This document shows positions 4,507-57,940 of a stretch of 64,000 nt of DNA, piece after piece (within the stretch, counting starts at the first letter, position 1; each line of letters starts with the position of its first letter). Under the pieces are notes generated by a model. It saw nothing but the letters and a program-made list of their open reading frames with translations, was not told where the DNA came from and made no database searches. The DNA is from an uncultured Pseudobdellovibrionaceae bacterium (GTDB taxonomy: Bacteria > Bdellovibrionota > FAC87 > UBA2466), in assembly GCA_964611895.1 (NCBI GenBank), contig CAZTDN010000019.1:577-64576 (forward strand). The letters run 5' to 3'. Both the position numbers and the translations under genes were made by a program.

Positions 4507-6024
4507 TTGGGGGCTGTGGGGTTAGTGAGCGAAGAACAGTTGCATTCTTGCGTTCAGGCAGAAGGGTTCGAACTGCTCTCAGAAGTCGGGCGGGGGGCGT
4601 CGGCCCGTATTCTGCTCGCTCGAGAAATTTCTACGGGCGATAAAGTCTGTCTTAAACTCTTCCATCCCCGGCTTTTTCAAGAAGCCACCAGCCAGGCGCG
4701 CATACGTCGGGAAATGGAGCTCTCTTCGAAGCTTAAACACCCCCATATTCTAGCCGTGCGGCGTTTCGTTTTGGACACACCGTCGCCGTATATGGTGTTG
4801 GACTATGTTCCCGGAAAGAACCTAGAGAAGTTCCAAGCAAGCCTTCCTTATATTTTGCCCGAAGTCGCAGTGCAAATTTCGATACAGATTCTTAAAGCGC
4901 TTGAGTATTCCCATCGCAAAGGGATAGTGCACCGCGATCTTAAACCGGAAAATGTTTTGGTGCGTGAGGATGGCCAAGTGTTTGTTGCGGACTTTGGCTT
5001 AGCGAAGGGCCGCGATCACGCCGCGACAAATCTTTCCAATACTTTGGTGGGGTCAGTAGATTACATGTCTCCCGAGCAGGTAAAAGGAGACTCCGTCGGT
5101 CCGCAATCCGATCTCTTTTCGTTGGGGGCGGTGCTGTATTTCTTGACGACCGGAACTCGTCCGTTTTCGCGCGGCTCGATCGTGGCAACTCTGGAAGCTG
5201 TAAAAAACGCAGCTCCTGAGAGTCCGCTGAAGAGAAACCCGAAAATCAGTAACCGCTTGTCTGCCTTGATTCTTAAAGCGATGGCGCGGGACGTATCGGC
5301 TAGGTTTCAGAGCGCAACTGAAATGCGAACGGCGCTCGAAGGGTACTTAGCTGATACGGGCCTAAGCGAGAATACCTTCAATTTGCATGAGTGGATGGTG
5401 GATCCCTCCGCCGTAACCATGGACGCACTGGGGCGATGCGTGGAAACACTGACCGCTCGCGCGGAAAAGTTACTGGCGCAAAGGGAGTGGGATGCCTTTA
5501 CCGAAGTGCAATCGCACTTGAGTATCAAAGCCCCGGAAAGCGAATCGCTCAGGCGATTATCCACACTTTACCGAAGTACTCGTCGAGCCAAAACTCGTCC
5601 GGTCTTGCGGTGGTCCTTGGTTGCGGTCTGGTTGTTAGTCATTGTGGGAGCAGCTGTTTTTTACTGGCCGAAAAACCCACAACCCCAGAGTCTTCCATCT
5701 CCTGTTGTCGCAAATCCAGCCCCCGTCGAAGTCGCGCCAGCGGTTCCCGCTGAAACCATCATTCCCGATCCTAAACCTGCTCCCCACAAGTCGCCCGCGG
5801 CTGCCAAACTAAAGGCACCTTCCGCGGGTGCCGGGACGGTTTGGTTTCGTCTCCCCCAAGGCACTGAGGTTTATTGGAATGGGTTTCCGGTCGACCCGGA
5901 AAAACCGCTCTATAACCAGAAGTTCGGTTTGCACGATCTTAAAATGATCCGAGAGGGTTTTGATCCAATCACGGCCAAAGTTGAAGTGTCCGCCTCAAGG
6001 CCAACCATTATCAAGGTGAACTAA
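4507..6024 (+). CDS. Ser/Thr protein kinase (Hanks-type) with C-terminal TM helix and Pro-rich extracytoplasmic tail
   Basis: HRDLKPENVLV catalytic loop, DFGLAK, SPEQ. TM segment WSLVAVWLLVIVGAAVFYW followed by PQPQSLPSPVVANPAPVEVAPAVP. Start is TTG at 4507 (GTG 4522 is an alternative). Confidence 0.85.
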   Translation: MGAVGLVSEEQLHSCVQAEGFELLSEVGRGASARILLAREISTGDKVCLKLFHPRLFQEATSQARIRREMELSSKLKHPHILAVRRFVLDTPSPYMVLDYVPGKNLEKFQASLPYILPEVAVQISIQILKALEYSHRKGIVHRDLKPENVLVREDGQVFVADFGLAKGRDHAATNLSNTLVGSVDYMSPEQVKGDSVGPQSDLFSLGAVLYFLTTGTRPFSRGSIVATLEAVKNAAPESPLKRNPKISNRLSALILKAMARDVSARFQSATEMRTALEGYLADTGLSENTFNLHEWMVDPSAVTMDALGRCVETLTARAEKLLAQREWDAFTEVQSHLSIKAPESESLRRLSTLYRSTRRAKTRPVLRWSLVAVWLLVIVGAAVFYWPKNPQPQSLPSPVVANPAPVEVAPAVPAETIIPDPKPAPHKSPAAAKLKAPSAGAGTVWFRLPQGTEVYWNGFPVDPEKPLYNQKFGLHDLKMIREGFDPITAKVEVSASRPTIIKVN

Positions 6025-12189: not shown

Positions 12190-13698
12190 AGTGATCAGGT
12201 TGCGCCGGAACACTTTCTCAAAAAGCGCCTTTTTTTGTTGAATCTTGAGTAGGGCAAGCTCAGTGGAGTCTCCACGACTCAGCCAAAACCGAACGGTTTT
12301 CGAGCGGATTTCTACACGCTCAGGCTCAACGCGCTTGGGTTTTGCATAGTCGAAACAATCAATCAACCTCAATAGTGCTAGAAGCTTCACAAACGCGGCG
12401 CCCTTGCTCTTGTTCTCCCCACTTTGGAATGGCAGCTTTCCAGTGCCGGACTTTCCATTCGTATGCCAAAAGCAAAGTTCTGCGACAAAATCGGTTTCCC
12501 AAGCCTCCGCTAGCGGAAGTTCCGCGTGTTGAACGATATAGGCGGAATGGGCTTCATATCCAGAGGGAGATACACTTCTCCCGGAGTTTCGAAACATGAC
12601 TGCCAAAGCAAGGTAGGCAAACCACTTGTCATCGAGTTTGTGCAGCGGGCGAAGTTTTCTAAATAGCCGTAGAGAAGCGCCGACGAGCCACCTCAAACGC
12701 GCTGGCTCTTCGCCAAACCGGACCGACTTTTCGAGAAAAGGTTCCAGGTCCCATCGGTCATTTTTCGGAGCGGGTTTGATCATTCTCAGCTGTTGATCCA
12801 AAATCCCATCTCTCAGGGAATATTCCGTTGAAGTGGCCGACTCCGCGCCTAAAGCACGCAAGGTTTCCGCTAAGACTACTGTCCCAGCTAGCATGAGATC
12901 CGCGCGACGGGGATCCATGCCCGGGAGGGACTGAATCTGTTTTATCGTCAATGGGGTCATGGTTCGAATGAGCTTTTCGAGCCATTTGGGAGTAATGTCC
13001 TTGCCCGTGTTTCGATTGCACATGCGATCGAGGGCCCGCGCGGTTCCGCTGGATGCGATGACCGATTTTGTTTTTGGCCAGTCGTTGTTCTTGATCGCTG
13101 TTTTGAGCAGGGTGCGGACATGGCCGCGTAGGTGTTTGACGGCTTCTTTGCCGTCTTCAGGGGGGATGGTTCGTAAAAAGATTTGTTGTAGCCTCGCGAC
13201 CCCAAGGGGGAAACTTTCGCTCACCACGAGCTTGTTGCCGCGGCAAACACTCACTTCGGTGCTGCCTCCCCCGATATCCACTAGTCCAAAAAAACCTTTG
13301 GGAGGTTTTTCGCGGTTTAAAATAGCGTCTGCAATCAAGGTGGCTTCTTCGCGGCCCGAAATGATGTGAACATCCATTCGCAGTGTTTTGCGTATTTTGA
13401 CAATGAGATCTTCAGCGTCGCTTGCATCTCGCAGCGCGCTGGTGGCGAAAGCGATGATTTTTTCTGTTTTTAGTTCTTCGGCGCGCTTTTTGAACGTGGA
13501 CAGGGCTTGCAGGGTGCGTCGGGAGGCCTTGGGGTCTAATTTGCCCGAGATAAAGACATTTTCACCCAACCTAACCATGAGCTTTTCTCGATGCAAGAGG
13601 CGGGTCTTATCTCGAGCGAGGGTTTCATGGACATCAAACCGGACTGAGTTCGTCCCTAAATCAATAATCGCAAAGCGTTTTTTCTTCCATTTTGCCAA
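12178..13698 (-). CDS. ppx: exopolyphosphatase / guanosine pentaphosphate phosphohydrolase (Ppx/GppA family)
   Basis: FAIIDLGTNSVRFDV, VDIGGGSTEV, ASSGTARAL actin-like ATPase motifs of Ppx/GppA. 506 aa. Confidence 0.85.
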   Translation of the reverse strand: MAKWKKKRFAIIDLGTNSVRFDVHETLARDKTRLLHREKLMVRLGENVFISGKLDPKASRRTLQALSTFKKRAEELKTEKIIAFATSALRDASDAEDLIVKIRKTLRMDVHIISGREEATLIADAILNREKPPKGFFGLVDIGGGSTEVSVCRGNKLVVSESFPLGVARLQQIFLRTIPPEDGKEAVKHLRGHVRTLLKTAIKNNDWPKTKSVIASSGTARALDRMCNRNTGKDITPKWLEKLIRTMTPLTIKQIQSLPGMDPRRADLMLAGTVVLAETLRALGAESATSTEYSLRDGILDQQLRMIKPAPKNDRWDLEPFLEKSVRFGEEPARLRWLVGASLRLFRKLRPLHKLDDKWFAYLALAVMFRNSGRSVSPSGYEAHSAYIVQHAELPLAEAWETDFVAELCFWHTNGKSGTGKLPFQSGENKSKGAAFVKLLALLRLIDCFDYAKPKRVEPERVEIRSKTVRFWLSRGDSTELALLKIQQKKALFEKVFRRNLITLTR

Positions 13699-52877: not shown

Positions 52878-52953
52878 GCGGGCGTAGCTCAGTTGGTAGA
52901 GCATCAGCTTCCCAAGCTGAGGGCCGAGGGTTCGAACCCCTTCGCCCGCTCCA
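52878..52953 (+). tRNA. tRNA-Gly (anticodon CCC), 76 nt with encoded CCA
   Basis: Hand-folded cloverleaf. Acceptor GCGGGCG/CGCCCGC, D-arm GCTC-AGTTGGTA-GAGC, anticodon stem TCAGC/GCTGA with loop TTCCCAA, T-arm GAGGG-TTCGAAC-CCCTT, discriminator T, CCA. Confidence 0.9.
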
Positions 52954-53019: not shown

Positions 53020-54279
53020 ATGCGAAATCTGTTCTTTGGTCTCATAACGACGGTGGTTTTGAGTAGCTGCAATACACGGCTAATTTTGCAGGGGGCCGGG
53101 GCGCCATCCTCAGGAGAGAGGTTGCCCGGCAAATACGCCCCCGCTACGCCCGATACAGAAGAAAATACAGATCCACTCAAGCTTGTTTCGATTTATATGT
53201 CGGGATGGTCGGCTTGCGGTCTAACTCCGGAAAAGCGGACCTACTGCTGGGGAGCGCGTCCTCCAGGGTGGCGAGACGCGGGCTACGATCTACCTCCTTA
53301 TGTCCTCGCAAGTGAGTGGCGATTTGAGTCCTTGGCCAGTACCGGCGATGCTGCTTGCGGCCTAGACATGAACGGCAAGGCCTTTTGCTGGGGAGAAAAC
53401 GAATTCGGAGCACTGGGAATTGGTAAGATAGGCAGAGAGTATAGCTCTCTCTCCCCCAAAGAAGTCAGTGGAGGGCTGCTTTTTTCGACGATAAAGGGAA
53501 GCGGCAGTCACTTTTGTGGGCTCACTCTAAATGACCAAACAGCCTACTGTTGGGGTGCTAACACTGACGGCCGCCTCGGTGTAGGCGATGAACTACCTCG
53601 TGGAACCCCCACCGCCGTCGCAGGAGGAATGCGTTTCAAAACCCTCGATGCTGGTACTTTTACTTGTGGAATAGCTTTTGATGATCGGCTTTATTGTTGG
53701 GGAAATACGGCCTACATTACTGTTCGATTTGGTTCGTTGGCTTCTGAGTATATAAGCAACGTTCCAATGTTGTTTGAAATGCCAGAGAGGCTAGTCTCTA
53801 TATCCGTGGGAAGTGCTAGCGCGTGTGGATTGACCGAGGAAGGTAAAGCCTATTGCTGGGGATATGGGGTGCACGGTCAACTCGGGTCAGGTATTAATGA
53901 CGTGACCAAGATTCCTCAGCCTGTAAGCGGGGGTTTGCGTTTCTCAGACATTCAACTCGGCAGCTATGCAAGCTGGGGCCTCACTTTGGACGGAAAAGTT
54001 TATCTCTGGGGAATGAATATACTCGGCGACCTCAACCCGGCCATGAGTGCGAATGAAATTACGAATGTACCTATTGAGGTTCCGACCGCGCTGCGGTTCT
54101 CTCGTATTTCGGGAGATGCAGCTGGAGTGTGCGGCCTTGAGAAGGACACCGGTTTGCTCTATTGCTGGGGCAATAGCTATGACTCAAAGCTATTTGTTAA
54201 GCAAGCAGCGGCACCTGGCAGTCAAGTAGGAACGCACGTTCCGACGCTGGTTCGCATTCGAAAAGAACTTTTGAATTAA
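53020..54279 (+). CDS. RCC1-repeat (beta-propeller) lipoprotein
   Basis: Lipobox VLSSCN. Six or more repeats of the CGLTxxGxxYCWGxNxxGxLG pattern (e.g. CGLTPEKRTYCWGA; CGLDMNGKAFCWGENEFGALGIG; CGLTLNDQTAYCWGANTDGRLGVGD; CGLTEEGKAYCWGYGVHGQLGSG). Confidence 0.7.
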   Translation: MRNLFFGLITTVVLSSCNTRLILQGAGAPSSGERLPGKYAPATPDTEENTDPLKLVSIYMSGWSACGLTPEKRTYCWGARPPGWRDAGYDLPPYVLASEWRFESLASTGDAACGLDMNGKAFCWGENEFGALGIGKIGREYSSLSPKEVSGGLLFSTIKGSGSHFCGLTLNDQTAYCWGANTDGRLGVGDELPRGTPTAVAGGMRFKTLDAGTFTCGIAFDDRLYCWGNTAYITVRFGSLASEYISNVPMLFEMPERLVSISVGSASACGLTEEGKAYCWGYGVHGQLGSGINDVTKIPQPVSGGLRFSDIQLGSYASWGLTLDGKVYLWGMNILGDLNPAMSANEITNVPIEVPTALRFSRISGDAAGVCGLEKDTGLLYCWGNSYDSKLFVKQAAAPGSQVGTHVPTLVRIRKELLN

Positions 54280-54295
54280 AGCCGCTCGCGATACC

Positions 54296-54775
54296 TCAAG
54301 CCGCTTTTTGAACGAGATCGATGACTTTGCCCTTGAGCGAAGCTTTCGCTTTTACAAATGCGTTAGCGATGTAGTCCAACTCCTCCTTGGTAAAGGCTTT
54401 TTTCATTTTGGGAAACATTTCCATCTCTTCTTCTTTTACATGATGCTCGACGATCTCTCTCAAGGTGGTAATTCGTGCGATAAACTCATGGGCCTCTGTG
54501 GGGGTTGCGTCGAGCTTGCTCAGTAAAAACTTGATCAATGAGTGTTCCTCCGTACCTTCGTAGCCAATTTCCAGAGTGCGTTCGGTGACCCTGAGGGAAG
54601 GGTAGAGTGCTTTTTCTTCTGCTTCGGCATGATGCGTGAGTTCGGTGCGGAGCGCATTGTAAAGGCGCTCTCGAGTCTGAGTAGACTTTTCAGTAGTTCT
54701 TTCTATCCGGGTGAAGAGCTCACCTACTTTTCTATGATCTGTTTTAATCAAATTGAAAATATTTTCATTCTTCAT
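54296..54775 (-). CDS. hemerythrin-like (HHE cation-binding) domain protein
   Basis: DHRKVGELF...HHAEAEEKALYP...EHH..EE..MFP pattern of His/Glu ligands of hemerythrin-like domains. 159 aa. Confidence 0.7.
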   Translation of the reverse strand: MKNENIFNLIKTDHRKVGELFTRIERTTEKSTQTRERLYNALRTELTHHAEAEEKALYPSLRVTERTLEIGYEGTEEHSLIKFLLSKLDATPTEAHEFIARITTLREIVEHHVKEEEMEMFPKMKKAFTKEELDYIANAFVKAKASLKGKVIDLVQKAA

Positions 54776-55025
54776 GGGGTTCTCCTTTTACCTACGAAAA
54801 AGTAGTACGAGCAAAACGACAACTAAGATCAAACTTGCGCTGGGGTAGTAACCGTATTGCCAGGCTGAGGAATAGGGCCACACGGGTAACAGGCCGATCA
54901 CTAATAGAACTAACAAAACCAGAAGTATTGTATGCACCCTGTCCCTCCTTTGTTATTCACCTCATAAGCAACTCGCGTGCCGACCACTCCTAGGCTTGAA
55001 GGCCTAGAATCTGTTGCGCATTGAA

Positions 55026-55715
55026 TCAGTGAGCTGCGTGAGGATAAGAGAAGCTGTGCGCATTTGGGCCCAGATCTAACAGGGTTTCCACTTCAAAGCG
55101 GAGTGTGGTTTGCTTTGGAAACTGGAACTCGGATCGGCGTAACCCGCGCTCGATCAGCAGCGTTTGGACGTTACGGTAGGGATGGTTCAACCAGGCAAGC
55201 CTCTTTTCCAGGCTCTGCGGCAAAAAAGTTTCAAAGTCAGCTTGAGGTTGAGTGGGCATTTCCGTTGCAGCGAATTGGAGCTCGTTTCGCACCGTACTGA
55301 ACGGGTACTCCTCTACTCGAGAGGATAAACCCGCCTCCACGGGATTGCGGAACACGTACTTATATGCGTGCGAGTAATAGATACCGTACGTGATCAGCGA
55401 CCAGTGGTACCTGGCTCCGAAAATCCGATTGATTCGTCCGGAAACGCGACCGATTTCCTTGCTTACTTCCCTGAGAAAGTAGTTCATGCACTCTCCCAAA
55501 TCCGCCTCGGGAGTCGATGCGATTAAGTGAAAGTGATTCGACATCAAGACAAAGGAGTGGATGTTCCAGCCGTAGCGATTGCGTACGATTTCGAGTATTT
55601 CTTTGAAGATTCTCCAAACGACATCGGTTGGTAAATAGAATGGCTCGCGGTTATTGCAGCGGGCAGTGACATGATAGGGAAACTGTTTTGTTCGATACAA
55701 GGGTTTTCTTGGCAT
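55026..55715 (-). CDS. REP-associated tyrosine transposase (RAYT) / IS200-like Y1 transposase family protein
   Basis: HuH motif SNHFHLIAS and catalytic-Tyr region YKYVFRNPVEAGL (Y..Y..NPV characteristic of RAYTs/COG1943). Flanked by REP-like palindromes. Confidence 0.75.
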   Translation of the reverse strand: MPRKPLYRTKQFPYHVTARCNNREPFYLPTDVVWRIFKEILEIVRNRYGWNIHSFVLMSNHFHLIASTPEADLGECMNYFLREVSKEIGRVSGRINRIFGARYHWSLITYGIYYSHAYKYVFRNPVEAGLSSRVEEYPFSTVRNELQFAATEMPTQPQADFETFLPQSLEKRLAWLNHPYRNVQTLLIERGLRRSEFQFPKQTTLRFEVETLLDLGPNAHSFSYPHAAH

Positions 55716-55752
55716 ATGCGGTCTTTAGCAGAAGCCATGCCAACTCGAGGTA

Positions 55753-55796
55753 GGTACGCGGTACCTTTTCAACAAAAGGTACCGCGTACCGGATTA
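55753..55796. repeat. REP-like perfect hairpin (17-bp arms GGTACGCGGTACCTTTT / AAAAGGTACCGCGTACC, 4-nt loop) followed by CGGAT
   Basis: Read directly: ggtacgcggtacctttt caac aaaaggtaccgcgtacc at 55753-55790, 38 nt upstream of the RAYT start codon. Confidence 0.65.
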
Positions 55797-56216
55797 AAAG
55801 GATGCTCGGCAGGCGTTGAATAGCCGATCGTCTACTAGGTACTGTGTTTTGTAATAGGCCGCCCAATACTGGTTTAGGTTGGCCAGGTAGTTTTTGTAGC
55901 TGGCGTCCTTACGCTGTTTCAGCGGGGCGATCTGGCAGTCGAGCTTTGCCCATCCGGTAGCAAAGTTTTGATAAATCGCATTGCTCGTAATCCAGAGCTC
56001 TAGGTATCGGCCTTGGTCGGCTGGCTGAAAAACATGGATGCCTTCACTAAATTGATAAACAGCCAGGTATTGAGTCGAGTCGCCATGCACTTGTAACGGA
56101 ATAGCGATGTGTGAACCGTCGACATAGTAGGTGAGTCCATTGAGGGTTGCCGGCGCCCACTGGGCCGAAGCAAGGGTGGTCAAGGCGGCAAAAGCCAAAG
56201 TGAAAAGTCTTTTCAT
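55794..56216 (-). CDS. small secreted protein bracketed by REP elements
   Basis: Signal peptide MKRLFTLAFAALTTLASA from internal ATG 56216. ~140 aa, Tyr/Trp-rich. No homology recognised. Confidence 0.45.
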   Translation of the reverse strand: MKRLFTLAFAALTTLASAQWAPATLNGLTYYVDGSHIAIPLQVHGDSTQYLAVYQFSEGIHVFQPADQGRYLELWITSNAIYQNFATGWAKLDCQIAPLKQRKDASYKNYLANLNQYWAAYYKTQYLVDDRLFNACRASF

Positions 56217-56372
56217 TTTCGTTTCTCCTGGTGAATAAATCGGTGGGTTGCCACCGCGGTACACCGGCACCTTGTGCAACGTCGATGCCAAGTCTCAAGG
56301 GCAGAAAGCGCAGCCAAAACCCCGGAGAATCCTTAGTTTTGTATCAAAGCTGAGATAGTCGTTCTCAAAAAA

Positions 56373-56445
56373 GGTACGCGCTACCTTTTCAAGAAAGGTA
56401 CGCGCTACCTTTTTCACGAAAGTAACCGCGTACCGGATAACGCGG
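56373..56445. repeat. REP-like cluster: two direct copies of AAAGGTACGCGCTACCTTTT plus an inverted partial copy GTAACCGCGTACCGGATAACGCGG
   Basis: 56373-56389 and 56397-56414 are near-identical units (each a small hairpin). 56422-56445 shares GCGTACCGGAT with the 55778-55796 copy. Confidence 0.55.
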
Positions 56446-56524
56446 AGCGGTCGAGTTAAGCGTCGGAAATGCCGATGTTTTAGAGCTGGGGTTCTCCCCC
56501 ACTTTAAAACGCTGAGGAGATTTC

Positions 56525-57940
56525 ATGCGCTTGCTTTGTGTAGTTTTTGGAGTGTTGTCGGCTTCGCTCGCTTTGGCCAAGAGTAACTGCCACTTTGAAC
56601 GGCTATTGCCCGCAGCACCTGTGGCGCCTCCAAAACCCGTCACTCCCCCTAAACCCAAACCCGCACCCATGCCCTCTCCCGCTCCAGCGCAACCCGATCC
56701 CGGACGGCGTCTGCCCGATCGGTTTCCCGATCGCCCGGTGAAGCCCACAACCGATCCCCAAAACATCAACCCGTTTGGTCTGTACAAAGACAAAAGCAAT
56801 GCACGTTTTTTGGGGCAAGTCCCAGAGCCCGTTAGAGAAAACTGGTCGCGGAGCTTCGAGGAAGAGCGCACCCGCTTGCAAGCAGAAGCAGCAAAGCTGG
56901 GCGTAACCGACCCTTCGCAGCTAATGCCCAAACTCTTTCAAAATAAATATAAACTCCTCGAAATCGAAGAAAAGCATCGGCCGGAAATCGAAAAACTGCT
57001 CCGCCGAATGGCGTCAGAAGTCTATGGGGAGGACGCCACGCAGTTCTTAGAAATCCGGATCAGCAATCAGCTCCCCGCATGGCCAGAAATTGAAAAAGCA
57101 CCCGCTTCTAGCCGCCTGGGGCAGTGGTTTGCGCAGCTCAAGAAGCGGTTTTCTCGAAAGGGCAGGCAGCAGATACTATCCCAAAAACAAGACATCGAGT
57201 TTCTGAAATACCGTCGAGAGCTGTACAACATGCTCTCCCAAGCGCACGGCTACTACGGTGTGAAACGTTTTTACTCAATGTACGAAAAAGAACTGCGCGC
57301 GCTCGATCCCGAACTCCCCGAACTGCTTCGCAACGACCTTACCCTTGCCATGTATGGTAATAGCCTCATGATCCAGGGCATGCCACAGGGGCATGTCCCG
57401 CGGTTTAAGAACCGGCAAGCGATGGAAGGCATGGTGCATGGCCGCAATATCACCGAGGTGGCGGCCGAGAGAAAACAAGACGAAGACGGCTCAACCTATC
57501 TCCAAATGGGCCATCGCCGTGGAACGGCGGTAGGGCACAACTCCCACGATGCAGCCCACGAAACGGCAAAGGCCGGGTTCAAGCTCGCCACCGCCTCAGA
57601 AGCTGTTGTGCGCTCCACATTGACCGCTACAGAGCGAAAAGTTCTCGATGAGGCGACCAATACCCCTCTTGCCGAAATTCGTCAGGGAGTCTTTGGGCCT
57701 TATCTCGACGTCACCTTGAGAAAATCCATTCGTGCGTTGGTGCATCCGAATAACAGCGCGCAGCAGCTCACGGATGCGCAATACCTCACTGTAATCGACC
57801 GCGTTTTTAGTGAGTTGCCGCCAGCTCAGTTTAATTTGTTTATTGAAAAAGCAGCGGATCCGGGTTTTGCCGCAAGTCCGGAAGCCGTGGCGGAATTGCG
57901 CAATACACTCGGAGATTTTGATCTGTTTCCAAAGCCATGA
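56525..57940 (+). CDS. secreted Pro-rich protein of unknown function, translationally coupled to the giant ORF
   Basis: Signal peptide MRLLCVVFGVLSASLALA, then PPKPVTPPKPKPAPMPSPAPAQPDP linker and a ~380-aa helical domain. Stop TGA overlaps ATG 57937 (ATGA). Confidence 0.55.
   Translation: MRLLCVVFGVLSASLALAKSNCHFERLLPAAPVAPPKPVTPPKPKPAPMPSPAPAQPDPGRRLPDRFPDRPVKPTTDPQNINPFGLYKDKSNARFLGQVPEPVRENWSRSFEEERTRLQAEAAKLGVTDPSQLMPKLFQNKYKLLEIEEKHRPEIEKLLRRMASEVYGEDATQFLEIRISNQLPAWPEIEKAPASSRLGQWFAQLKKRFSRKGRQQILSQKQDIEFLKYRRELYNMLSQAHGYYGVKRFYSMYEKELRALDPELPELLRNDLTLAMYGNSLMIQGMPQGHVPRFKNRQAMEGMVHGRNITEVAAERKQDEDGSTYLQMGHRRGTAVGHNSHDAAHETAKAGFKLATASEAVVRSTLTATERKVLDEATNTPLAEIRQGVFGPYLDVTLRKSIRALVHPNNSAQQLTDAQYLTVIDRVFSELPPAQFNLFIEKAADPGFAASPEAVAELRNTLGDFDLFPKP

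Follow-up and report, generated by a model that had tools for sequence, protein, structure and literature searches.

REP-associated tyrosine transposases (RAYTs), together with the repetitive extragenic palindromic (REP) sequences that accompany them, are a textbook case of a transposase long retained by its host. The term REPtron denotes one RAYT gene together with the palindromes that belong to it (Nunvar 2010; Ton-Hoang 2012; Messing 2012; PMC6006769; PMC3733652), and to our knowledge the choice of target by a RAYT is known structurally for one enzyme only. The subject of this text is a RAYT-type gene (55026-55715, minus strand) and the palindromic repeats beside it in the genome of an uncultured Pseudobdellovibrionaceae bacterium (Bdellovibrionota; GenBank assembly GCA_964611895.1, contig CAZTDN010000019.1, positions 577 to 64,576 of the forward strand), a stretch of 64,000 nucleotides that is called the window throughout. 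With a probability of roughly 0.7, the locus is a REPtron-like unit minus one side, in which a single-copy RAYT-type enzyme of the Y1/HUH kind stands beside its cognate palindromic repeats. Nothing at the locus points to a new kind of system; it is a known kind with an incomplete layout.

The E. coli enzyme TnpA-REP (YafM, PDB entry 4ER8), which belongs to subclass 2.2 or Bertels Group 2, has the Y1/HUH fold and the Y---NP form of the tyrosine motif in common with the window protein, and the E. coli REPtron, with its REPs and bacterial interspersed mosaic elements (BIMEs), likewise consists of a single-copy gene beside short palindromes, some of them arranged as inverted doublets. The two systems differ in several respects. 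The window protein is 24% identical to TnpA-REP, carries ~65 additional C-terminal residues with a WLN motif and lacks the residues that read the GTAG of the E. coli target; its repeats have the core GGTAC-N3-GTACC without a conserved GT[AG]G foot, and they occupy one side of the gene only.

The second group for comparison is formed by TIRYT genes, or TIRtrons (subclass 2.1, Quentin 2018; Bertels Group 1), which carry self-complementary terminal inverted repeats (TIRs) that make up only moderately abundant families (Di Nocera et al. 2013), while subclass 2.1 is prevalent in delta-proteobacteria and was reported without REP (Quentin et al., PMC6006769). An NH[YF]H motif, a longer protein and a C-terminal extension are found both in this group and in the window protein; the group is prevalent in the former delta-proteobacteria, and its flanking inverted repeats are self-complementary and usually non-abundant, like those of the family to which the window protein belongs, whose repeats also recall this group in having no GTAG foot. 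In contrast, the window repeats are devoid of GGGGWSAS, and the protein matches none of the Pfam domains Bac_DnaA_C, HTH_23 and HTH_28 (E <=0.01). The tyrosine motif of the family is YV[FY]RNP (YVFRNP in the window) instead of Y[IV]HLNP or YIELNP, and comparison with the published motifs gives F-G at the place of the W[EQ]/FQ of subclass 2.1, whereas NHFH fits, so that the agreement is partial. Moreover, the repeats of this family, unlike those of TIRYTs, have proliferated in the manner of REPs in at least one genome.

REPINs proper, which are REP doublets that form hairpins, replicate as a unit and have a conserved spacer. In Pseudomonas, the REPIN-RAYT systems (Group 3, subclass 2.5; Bertels and Rainey 2011) resemble the present family in their inverted doublets forming long hairpins, in repeats located outside genes and in a single, apparently vertically inherited RAYT flanked by repeats. 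They are distinguished by the protein clade and the repeat sequence, by the unrelated doublet spacers in JAURQB01, a genome that stands out by its many copies of the present repeat, and by the loop of just 4 nt in the window doublet. The TnpA transposases of the IS200/IS605 insertion sequences (IS608, ISDra2) have the HUH/Y1 fold in common with the window protein and, presumably by analogy, the recognition of a subterminal hairpin on single-stranded DNA (ssDNA). However, Y---NP is the signature of class 2 (TnpA-REP-like) TnpAY1 proteins, while IS200 proteins have Y---Q (Quentin et al., PMC6006769), and the window protein, which has Y---NP, counts 229 aa against the ~130-150 aa of these core-only enzymes. 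No tnpB accompanies the gene, which is present in one copy in the window where class 1 elements are typically of high copy number, and the gene order is conserved among the Bdellovibrio loci of its homologues, in further contrast to IS200/IS605. No REPs or RAYTs of Bdellovibrio-like bacteria were found in the literature searched, supplements included, which is absence of evidence only, and the repeat family is apparently undescribed in Bdellovibrionota.

The transposase and its conserved residues

An earlier note on this DNA had proposed a RAYT-type Y1/HUH enzyme on the basis of a 229-aa minus-strand product with the motif SNHFHLIAS and a tyrosine box, and both motifs are present in the product of 55026-55715, which begins with MPRKPLYRT. 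The HUH motif is N60-H61-F62-H63 within SNHFHLIAS. The tyrosine box YKYVFRNPVEAGL contains Y118-K-Y120, with YKYVFRNP at residues 118-125, and the catalytic tyrosine is Y120, in the arrangement Y120-VFR-N124-P125 that constitutes the Y---NP motif. The Pfam family Y1_Tnp is matched with 30.6 bits, above its gathering score of 23. Among NCBIfam models the RAYT model REP_Tyr_transpos ranks first, though below its cut-off, while the NCBIfam model of IS200 transposases (NF033573, transpos_IS200) reaches only 18.5 bits against a cut-off of 55.

The sole sequence match in the PDB is 4ER8, the complex of E. coli TnpA-REP with a REP hairpin (E 2e-8), in which the H-F-H of the window protein aligns over the H-M-H of the E. 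coli protein and Y120 over the catalytic Y115. The AlphaFold2 (AF2) model, calculated with 41 homologues, has a mean confidence (pLDDT) of 90.8, and Foldseek likewise places 4ER8 first (E 4.8e-11, target TM 0.74), above the transposases of ISDra2, IS608 and IS200. The enzyme class named in the earlier note is thereby upheld by the Pfam profile, by sequence and by fold, and the protein is probably a domesticated transposase of RAYT type. The residues N60, H61, H63, Y120, N124 and P125 are invariant in family alignments of 41 and 42 sequences, so that the alignment by which the earlier note had wanted the catalytic HUH and tyrosine residues checked finds them in place.

W175, the first residue of the C-terminal motif W175-L-N177, is also invariant in the 42-sequence alignment, and because of this the extension of ~65 residues past the E. 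coli core is, as far as the alignment can tell, a conserved domain; it is helical in the AF2 model. The last ~15 aa (residues ~215-229) have no counterpart in the alignment, and pLDDT falls below 50 at 222-229. The homologues, which are chiefly from Bdellovibrionota, are proteins of ~212 aa. The GC content of the gene, overall and at third codon positions (GC3), equals that of its neighbours and of the host.

In the public NCBI annotation of the same region (GCA_013565695.1, JACCDT010230141.1; positions 5239-5700 of the retrieved locus L001), a protein of 153 aa is called that starts from M77 and thus excludes the HUH motif. Since the MPRK start is conserved across the family, the 229-aa form, for which no full-length database record was found, is favoured and the 153-aa annotation is probably too short. 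The region is also found on a 24-kb NCBI contig and on a 1.3-kb Logan contig, from which no extra sequence was gained.

Palindromic repeats in the window

Five repeat units are present in the window, and they are arranged in two clusters that both lie 5' of the RAYT gene. The proximal cluster (55753-55794) is a doublet of two inverted cores GGTACGCGGTACC(TTTT), followed by the tail GGAT. It forms a hairpin with the arms GGTACGCGGTACCTTTT (55753-55769) and AAAAGGTACCGCGTACC (55774-55790), each of 17 nt and 100% complementary, around a 4-nt loop CAAC. The perfect 17-bp arms agree with the earlier description of this hairpin, but the distance to the ATG of the RAYT gene is 37 nt instead of the 38 nt given there. 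On its other side the doublet adjoins the stop codon of a small gene encoding a 140-aa protein, and the GGAT tail ends on the first base of that codon (55794). Folded as ssDNA, the hairpin reaches -20.9 kcal/mol, with z values of -8.8 on the plus strand and -9.5 on the minus strand (200 shuffles), and a scan for local inverted repeats ranks it as the strongest in the 64-kb window. A covariance model, R1, which was built from 37 units and run on the window with filters off, scores the two halves of the doublet at 31.7 and 30.5 bits (E ~1e-6).

The distal cluster is located ~600 bp from the proximal doublet, past the 140-aa open reading frame (ORF), within the divergent intergenic region 56216-56525. 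Its two direct copies and one inverted copy, which the earlier note had pointed out, lie at 56370-56438. Unit 1 (56370-56389, plus strand) has the sequence AAAGGTACGCGCTACCTTTT, a C-variant of the core, and obtains 37.4 bits with R1 (E 1.4e-8); unit 2 (56394-56413, plus strand) repeats unit 1 in the same orientation, 24 nt further on. Unit 3 (56416-56438, minus strand) is inverted and degenerate, reads ATCCGGTACGCGGTTACTTTC on the minus strand and obtains only 11.6 bits with R1 (E ~1). It is the GGTTAC variant that also stands beside the closest homologues of the RAYT gene (loci L078 and L092). The shared 3' tail reported earlier was recovered as well: GCGTACCGGAT occurs exactly twice in the window, at 55784 and 56428, once per cluster, with unit 3 as its bearer in the distal cluster. 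The two hairpins, each taken with its tail, point the same way and share 82% identity across 50 nt.

When read in the orientation of the gene, the proximal doublet offers one unit of each polarity, the GCG-centred one followed by the CGC-centred one, and the distal cluster begins with a GGTTAC-type unit, its core identical to the ones found 5' of the gene in L078 and L092, and continues with two of opposite polarity. With up to 2 mismatches, the core GGTACGCGSTACC has 6 matches in the window against 1.42 expected, and 5 of the 6 fall in the two clusters. Mismatch searches, the inverted-repeat scan and R1 returned 0 further copies in the other 62 kb of the window, a result that by a Poisson estimate excludes only densities above ~5 per 100 kb. 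Mismatch searches and R1 likewise gave no unit 3' of the RAYT gene, beyond 55026. A match at 12215-12239 was considered as a degenerate copy and discarded, as it is merely AAAAAGCGCCTTTTTTT. The consensus of the family, AAAAGGTACGCGGTACCTTTT, has no conserved GT[AG]G foot; GTAG precedes only the proximal copy of the window, by happenstance. The repeats match no Rfam family.

The repeat beside homologous genes

The flanks of the gene were read at nine other loci of homologues, and in eight of these nine inverted cores of the form GGTA[CG]-N3-[CG]TACC were found near both gene ends, at distances of ~10-160 nt. In L004, whose protein is 31% identical to that of the window, the copies lie 87 nt before the start and 12 nt after the stop. 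The two closest homologues, both 58% identical, have their stop codon inside the 3' repeat (L078 10657-10771 and L092 2055-2075; AAGTAACCGCGTACC, AAG TAA CCGCGTACC): L078 has a 5' copy and a 3' copy overlapping the stop codon, and L092 has two direct 5' copies and a 3' copy that supplies the stop codon with its TAA. Copies on both sides were also seen in L079, L085, B. bacteriovorus (L081, CP102930) and Pseudobdellovibrio exovorus (L083, CP003537), the last two with a GCC-centred variant. L080, the remaining one of the eight, carries a 31-nt inverted repeat with half a core, and the ninth locus, L087, a degenerate 3' copy only.

The association between the protein family and the palindrome is solid at the level of sequence, because L092, which was absent from the training set of R1, was detected by R1 all the same, and because every R1 match in the 140 kb of homologue loci adjoins a homologue. 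The palindromes can therefore be regarded as flanking repeats specific to this family, as had been claimed. The gene order is identical in L080 (6185-13104; a Bdellovibrio contig from a JGI metagenome) and L081 (6100-13036), with a thiolase, a short-chain dehydrogenase, an HD-domain protein, the RAYT homologue and two flagellin genes, which suggests vertical inheritance at a fixed site.

Some minor features of these loci may be recorded as well. The two 5' units of L092 belong to a 38-nt tandem duplication (1323-1393), and the distal cluster of the window contains one of 24 nt; tandem copying of units close to the gene seems to have happened more than once. At L078, a gene for tRNA-Val lies at most 40 nt past the 3' repeat on the opposite strand, and in L087 a tRNA-like sequence, a candidate tRNA, directly follows the degenerate 3' unit.

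Dispersal of the core in other genomes

The exact 17-mer GGTACGCGSTACCTTTT was scanned in one genome per species of GTDB (596 Gb), by which 76 stretches were returned, with ~140 chance matches expected by our own estimate; most of the matches are singletons in unrelated taxa. The metagenome-assembled genome (MAG) JAURQB01 (Bdellovibrionota SFB_South_Co_50, 38% GC) holds 46 exact copies in 22 stretches covering 138 kb (L004, L010, L012, L013, L018, L029, L030, L036-L039, L044-L046, L057-L059, L066, L067, L069, L075 and L077). Their consensus is the 25-nt palindrome cCAAAAGGTACGCGGTACCTTTTGGc. Just 3 of the 46 copies are contained in ORFs of 120 aa or more, though such ORFs make up 89% of the bases. 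Many copies pair up as inverted doublets at a distance of 20-45 nt and form long hairpins, the doublet of L039 reaching -38.5 kcal/mol (z = -13), with spacers that are unrelated from copy to copy, and a few are single units within longer, variable complementary stems of 15-19 bp. The RAYT homologue of JAURQB01 itself (L004) is flanked by copies.

Several other MAGs are multi-copy for the 17-mer too. Taken as sequence evidence, these distributions point to a core that acts as a REP in at least some lineages, and the earlier expectation of a dispersed rather than unique repeat is borne out for the related MAG JAURQB01 by its 46 copies, nearly all outside long ORFs. The possibility that the JAURQB01 repeats sit in terminator loops was considered and rejected, as a T-rich tract is present in 11 of 44 units only and most stems are the 10-12 bp of the unit itself.

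The 17-mer was also met outside Bdellovibrionota. DATKVD01, a MAG labelled 'Planctomycetota' with 66% GC, has 10 exact copies (L007, L032, L043, L053, L074 and L076), several of which form inverted doublets ~60 nt apart, and JACZKQ01, a Phycisphaerae MAG with 58% GC (L022, L023, L025 and L026), has the 17-mer with A/T shoulders in multiple copies. No RAYT homologue was found in the fetched flanks of the Planctomycetota copies. Their multi-copy state suggests either spread across phyla or very old conservation of the repeat.

Weighing of alternative readings

Several points count against a REPtron-like unit. The top NCBIfam model for the window protein, the RAYT equivalog NF047646 (REP_Tyr_transpos), stays at 70.2 bits under its cut-off of 80. 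The residues W94, Q95, E100, H101 and R104, through which the E. coli enzyme contacts GTAG, are F, G, W, S and T in the window protein; with the GTAG-reading residues not conserved, target recognition must, on the alignment, differ from that of E. coli TnpA-REP, and the cleavage site is therefore not predictable. No copy stands elsewhere in the 64-kb window, dispersal being seen in other genomes only, and a metagenome scan with the window-type unit AAAGKWACCGCGTACCGGAT gave one match, located inside a GH1 glycosidase gene and taken as chance. Most homologue loci have repeats only beside the gene within +/-10 kb, which fits a TIRtron equally, and the mechanism for this clade is drawn entirely from analogy. 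Part of this would suit a TIRtron-like relic, in which the palindromes are the gene's own TIRs (TIRYT, subclass 2.1), locally duplicated and partly lost instead of dispersed, and the enzyme is idle or repurposed for other work on ssDNA: within the window, as within +/-10 kb of seven homologues, copies are confined to the neighbourhood of the gene, the NCBIfam cut-off for RAYTs is missed, and the NH[F]H motif, the F-G in place of the 'W', a length of ~212-229 aa and the C-terminal extension recall subclass 2.1. Such a relic is nevertheless considered unlikely in view of the identical 17-mer that forms 46 copies, as a rule outside long ORFs and partly as inverted doublets, in JAURQB01, where it also stands at the homologue, and that is multi-copy in several other MAGs. 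GGGGWSAS is furthermore absent from the units examined, the protein has no Bac_DnaA_C or helix-turn-helix Pfam domain, and the distal cluster, 600 bp off and past another gene, marks no gene terminus.

The same near-identical 25-nt units at 46 sites, as well as the inverted copies at RAYT homologues in eight of nine loci of distant genomes, would go unexplained if the palindromes were chiefly RNA or DNA signals of the host, such as a terminator, an mRNA-stabilising hairpin or an operator, with the adjacency to the RAYT gene incidental or autoregulatory. This explanation takes its appeal from the position of the proximal hairpin, which adjoins the stop codon of the small gene on one side and is 37 nt away from the RAYT start on the other, from the minus-strand sequence GGTACGCGGTACC followed by TTTTGTTG, which scores weakly as terminator-like, from the location of the distal cluster in a divergent intergenic region, from the T-rich tract right after the stem in 11 of 44 JAURQB01 units, and from REPs elsewhere that act as terminators or stabilisers, as stated in PMC3733652. 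Yet the U-run of the window hairpin lies mainly within the stem and not after it, no Rfam family is matched, and the explanation is held to be very improbable; a secondary role of the proximal hairpin in transcription is possible and compatible with a REPtron-like unit. Least probable is a mobilisable cassette at 55745-56438, in which the two direct hairpin units would serve as ends in the manner of IS200/IS605 and the 140-aa gene as cargo. The direct orientation and common GCGTACCGGAT tail of these units, the very rare and patchy family of the small protein, and a parallel layout of repeat, small secreted gene, repeat and RAYT in L004 speak for it, but the small genes of the window and of L004 are unrelated, neither a second copy nor an empty site turned up, no repeats or RAYT accompany the nearest homologue of the putative cargo, the cargo gene itself has the GC and GC3 of the host, and any intergenic repeat will come to stand between consecutive genes.

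Proposed mechanism and significance

For the REPtron-like unit, binding and cleavage of the repeats by the window protein and their mobilisation are inferred by us from the E. coli TnpA-REP enzyme and from the TnpA proteins of IS608 and ISDra2. By this analogy, the window RAYT would bind to the hairpin that the repeat forms on ssDNA, H61 and H63 would hold a metal, and Y120 would cleave the strand beside the hairpin and join it again via a 5'-phosphotyrosine link, a chemistry by which repeats could be moved or copied. The recognised repeat would be the GGTAC-N3-GTACC palindrome with A/T-rich shoulders, the GTAG-footed REP type being excluded.

A 3' unit, which bears the stop codon in the closest relatives, may have been lost through rearrangement, which would have left the slightly longer and non-conserved C-terminal tail; the window product is ~3-10 residues longer than those of its nearest relatives. 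Because the stop codon of the relatives sits in the 3' repeat, the window is without this repeat and the tail is unmatched, loss of the 3' end in a rearrangement appears to be the simplest reading of the sequence. The classic RAYT/REP arrangement that the earlier note had seen here thus holds for the kind of system and for the cognate palindromes, but not for the layout, with both clusters on the 5' side, the 3' repeat absent and no conserved GTAG foot. Its further suggestion, a recombination boundary, received no direct support; the sole hint is that the 3' repeat is missing from the opposite gene end.

The locus adds a clade in which the repeats are without a GTAG guide, the protein is without GTAG readers and the core is conserved beside very divergent enzymes, and which could provide a second model of how hairpins are recognised. 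In annotation, the locus should be taken as a degraded form of the usual layout, with repeats on one side only. Two aspects are modestly interesting, namely the non-GTAG core that stays constant beside enzymes only ~30% identical, and a locus with an apparently lost 3' repeat. A more far-reaching idea, which is rather improbable, is that the clade uses a non-GTAG code in which the GGTAC-N3-GTACC hairpin is read with the conserved WLN domain, that enzyme and repeat are a constrained and ancient, or a cross-phylum, pair, and that the direct pair of hairpins could let the enzyme move the 140-aa gene. If so, a 17-nt core would persist beside enzymes of that low identity and also in Planctomycetota MAGs of 58-66% GC.

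The bracketed small gene and other neighbours

The gene between the two repeat clusters (55794-56216, minus strand) encodes a 140-aa protein that begins MKRLFTLAFAALTTLASAQ, has a signal-peptide-like N-terminus and is preceded by an AGGAG Shine-Dalgarno sequence, and the bracketing of this gene by the repeats, to which the earlier note had drawn attention, is present as described. The protein matches no Pfam or NCBIfam model. A search of 5.8e9 proteins recovered only the protein itself, and an exhaustive HMMER search of 1.8e9 representative proteins yielded 3 weak relatives. The nearest (44% identity; L091 6001-6414, GCA_016307145.1) is encoded on a 70% GC contig of a very fragmented assembly, at a locus with no RAYT and no cores, where a DUF2330 gene adjoins it.

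The small gene is probably an ordinary gene for a rare secreted protein, a neighbour rather than a functional part of the system. Its candidacy as cargo was given up on the locus of the nearest homologue, which has neither repeats nor RAYT, and on its own GC and GC3, which are those of the host neighbours. Since repeats on either side of a gene are expected for any intergenic repeat, the bracketing is no sign of cargo. A link through DUF2330 was also looked for, and BLASTP gave no similarity between the 471-aa gene of the window and the neighbours of the RAYT and small-gene homologues. Synteny linked to tRNA genes was tried and rejected, the tRNA-Val of L078 lying at the 3' repeat and the tRNA-Gly of the window 2 kb away, with no common arrangement.

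Downstream of the RAYT gene follow a 49-aa hydrophobic ORF (54788-54937, minus strand), a gene for a hemerythrin-domain protein (54296-54775, minus strand), a gene for an RCC1-repeat protein whose N-terminus resembles that of a lipoprotein (53020-54279, plus strand) and the tRNA-Gly(CCC) gene (52878-52953, plus strand). The lowest GC content of the window, 0.487, is reached at 54001-56000.

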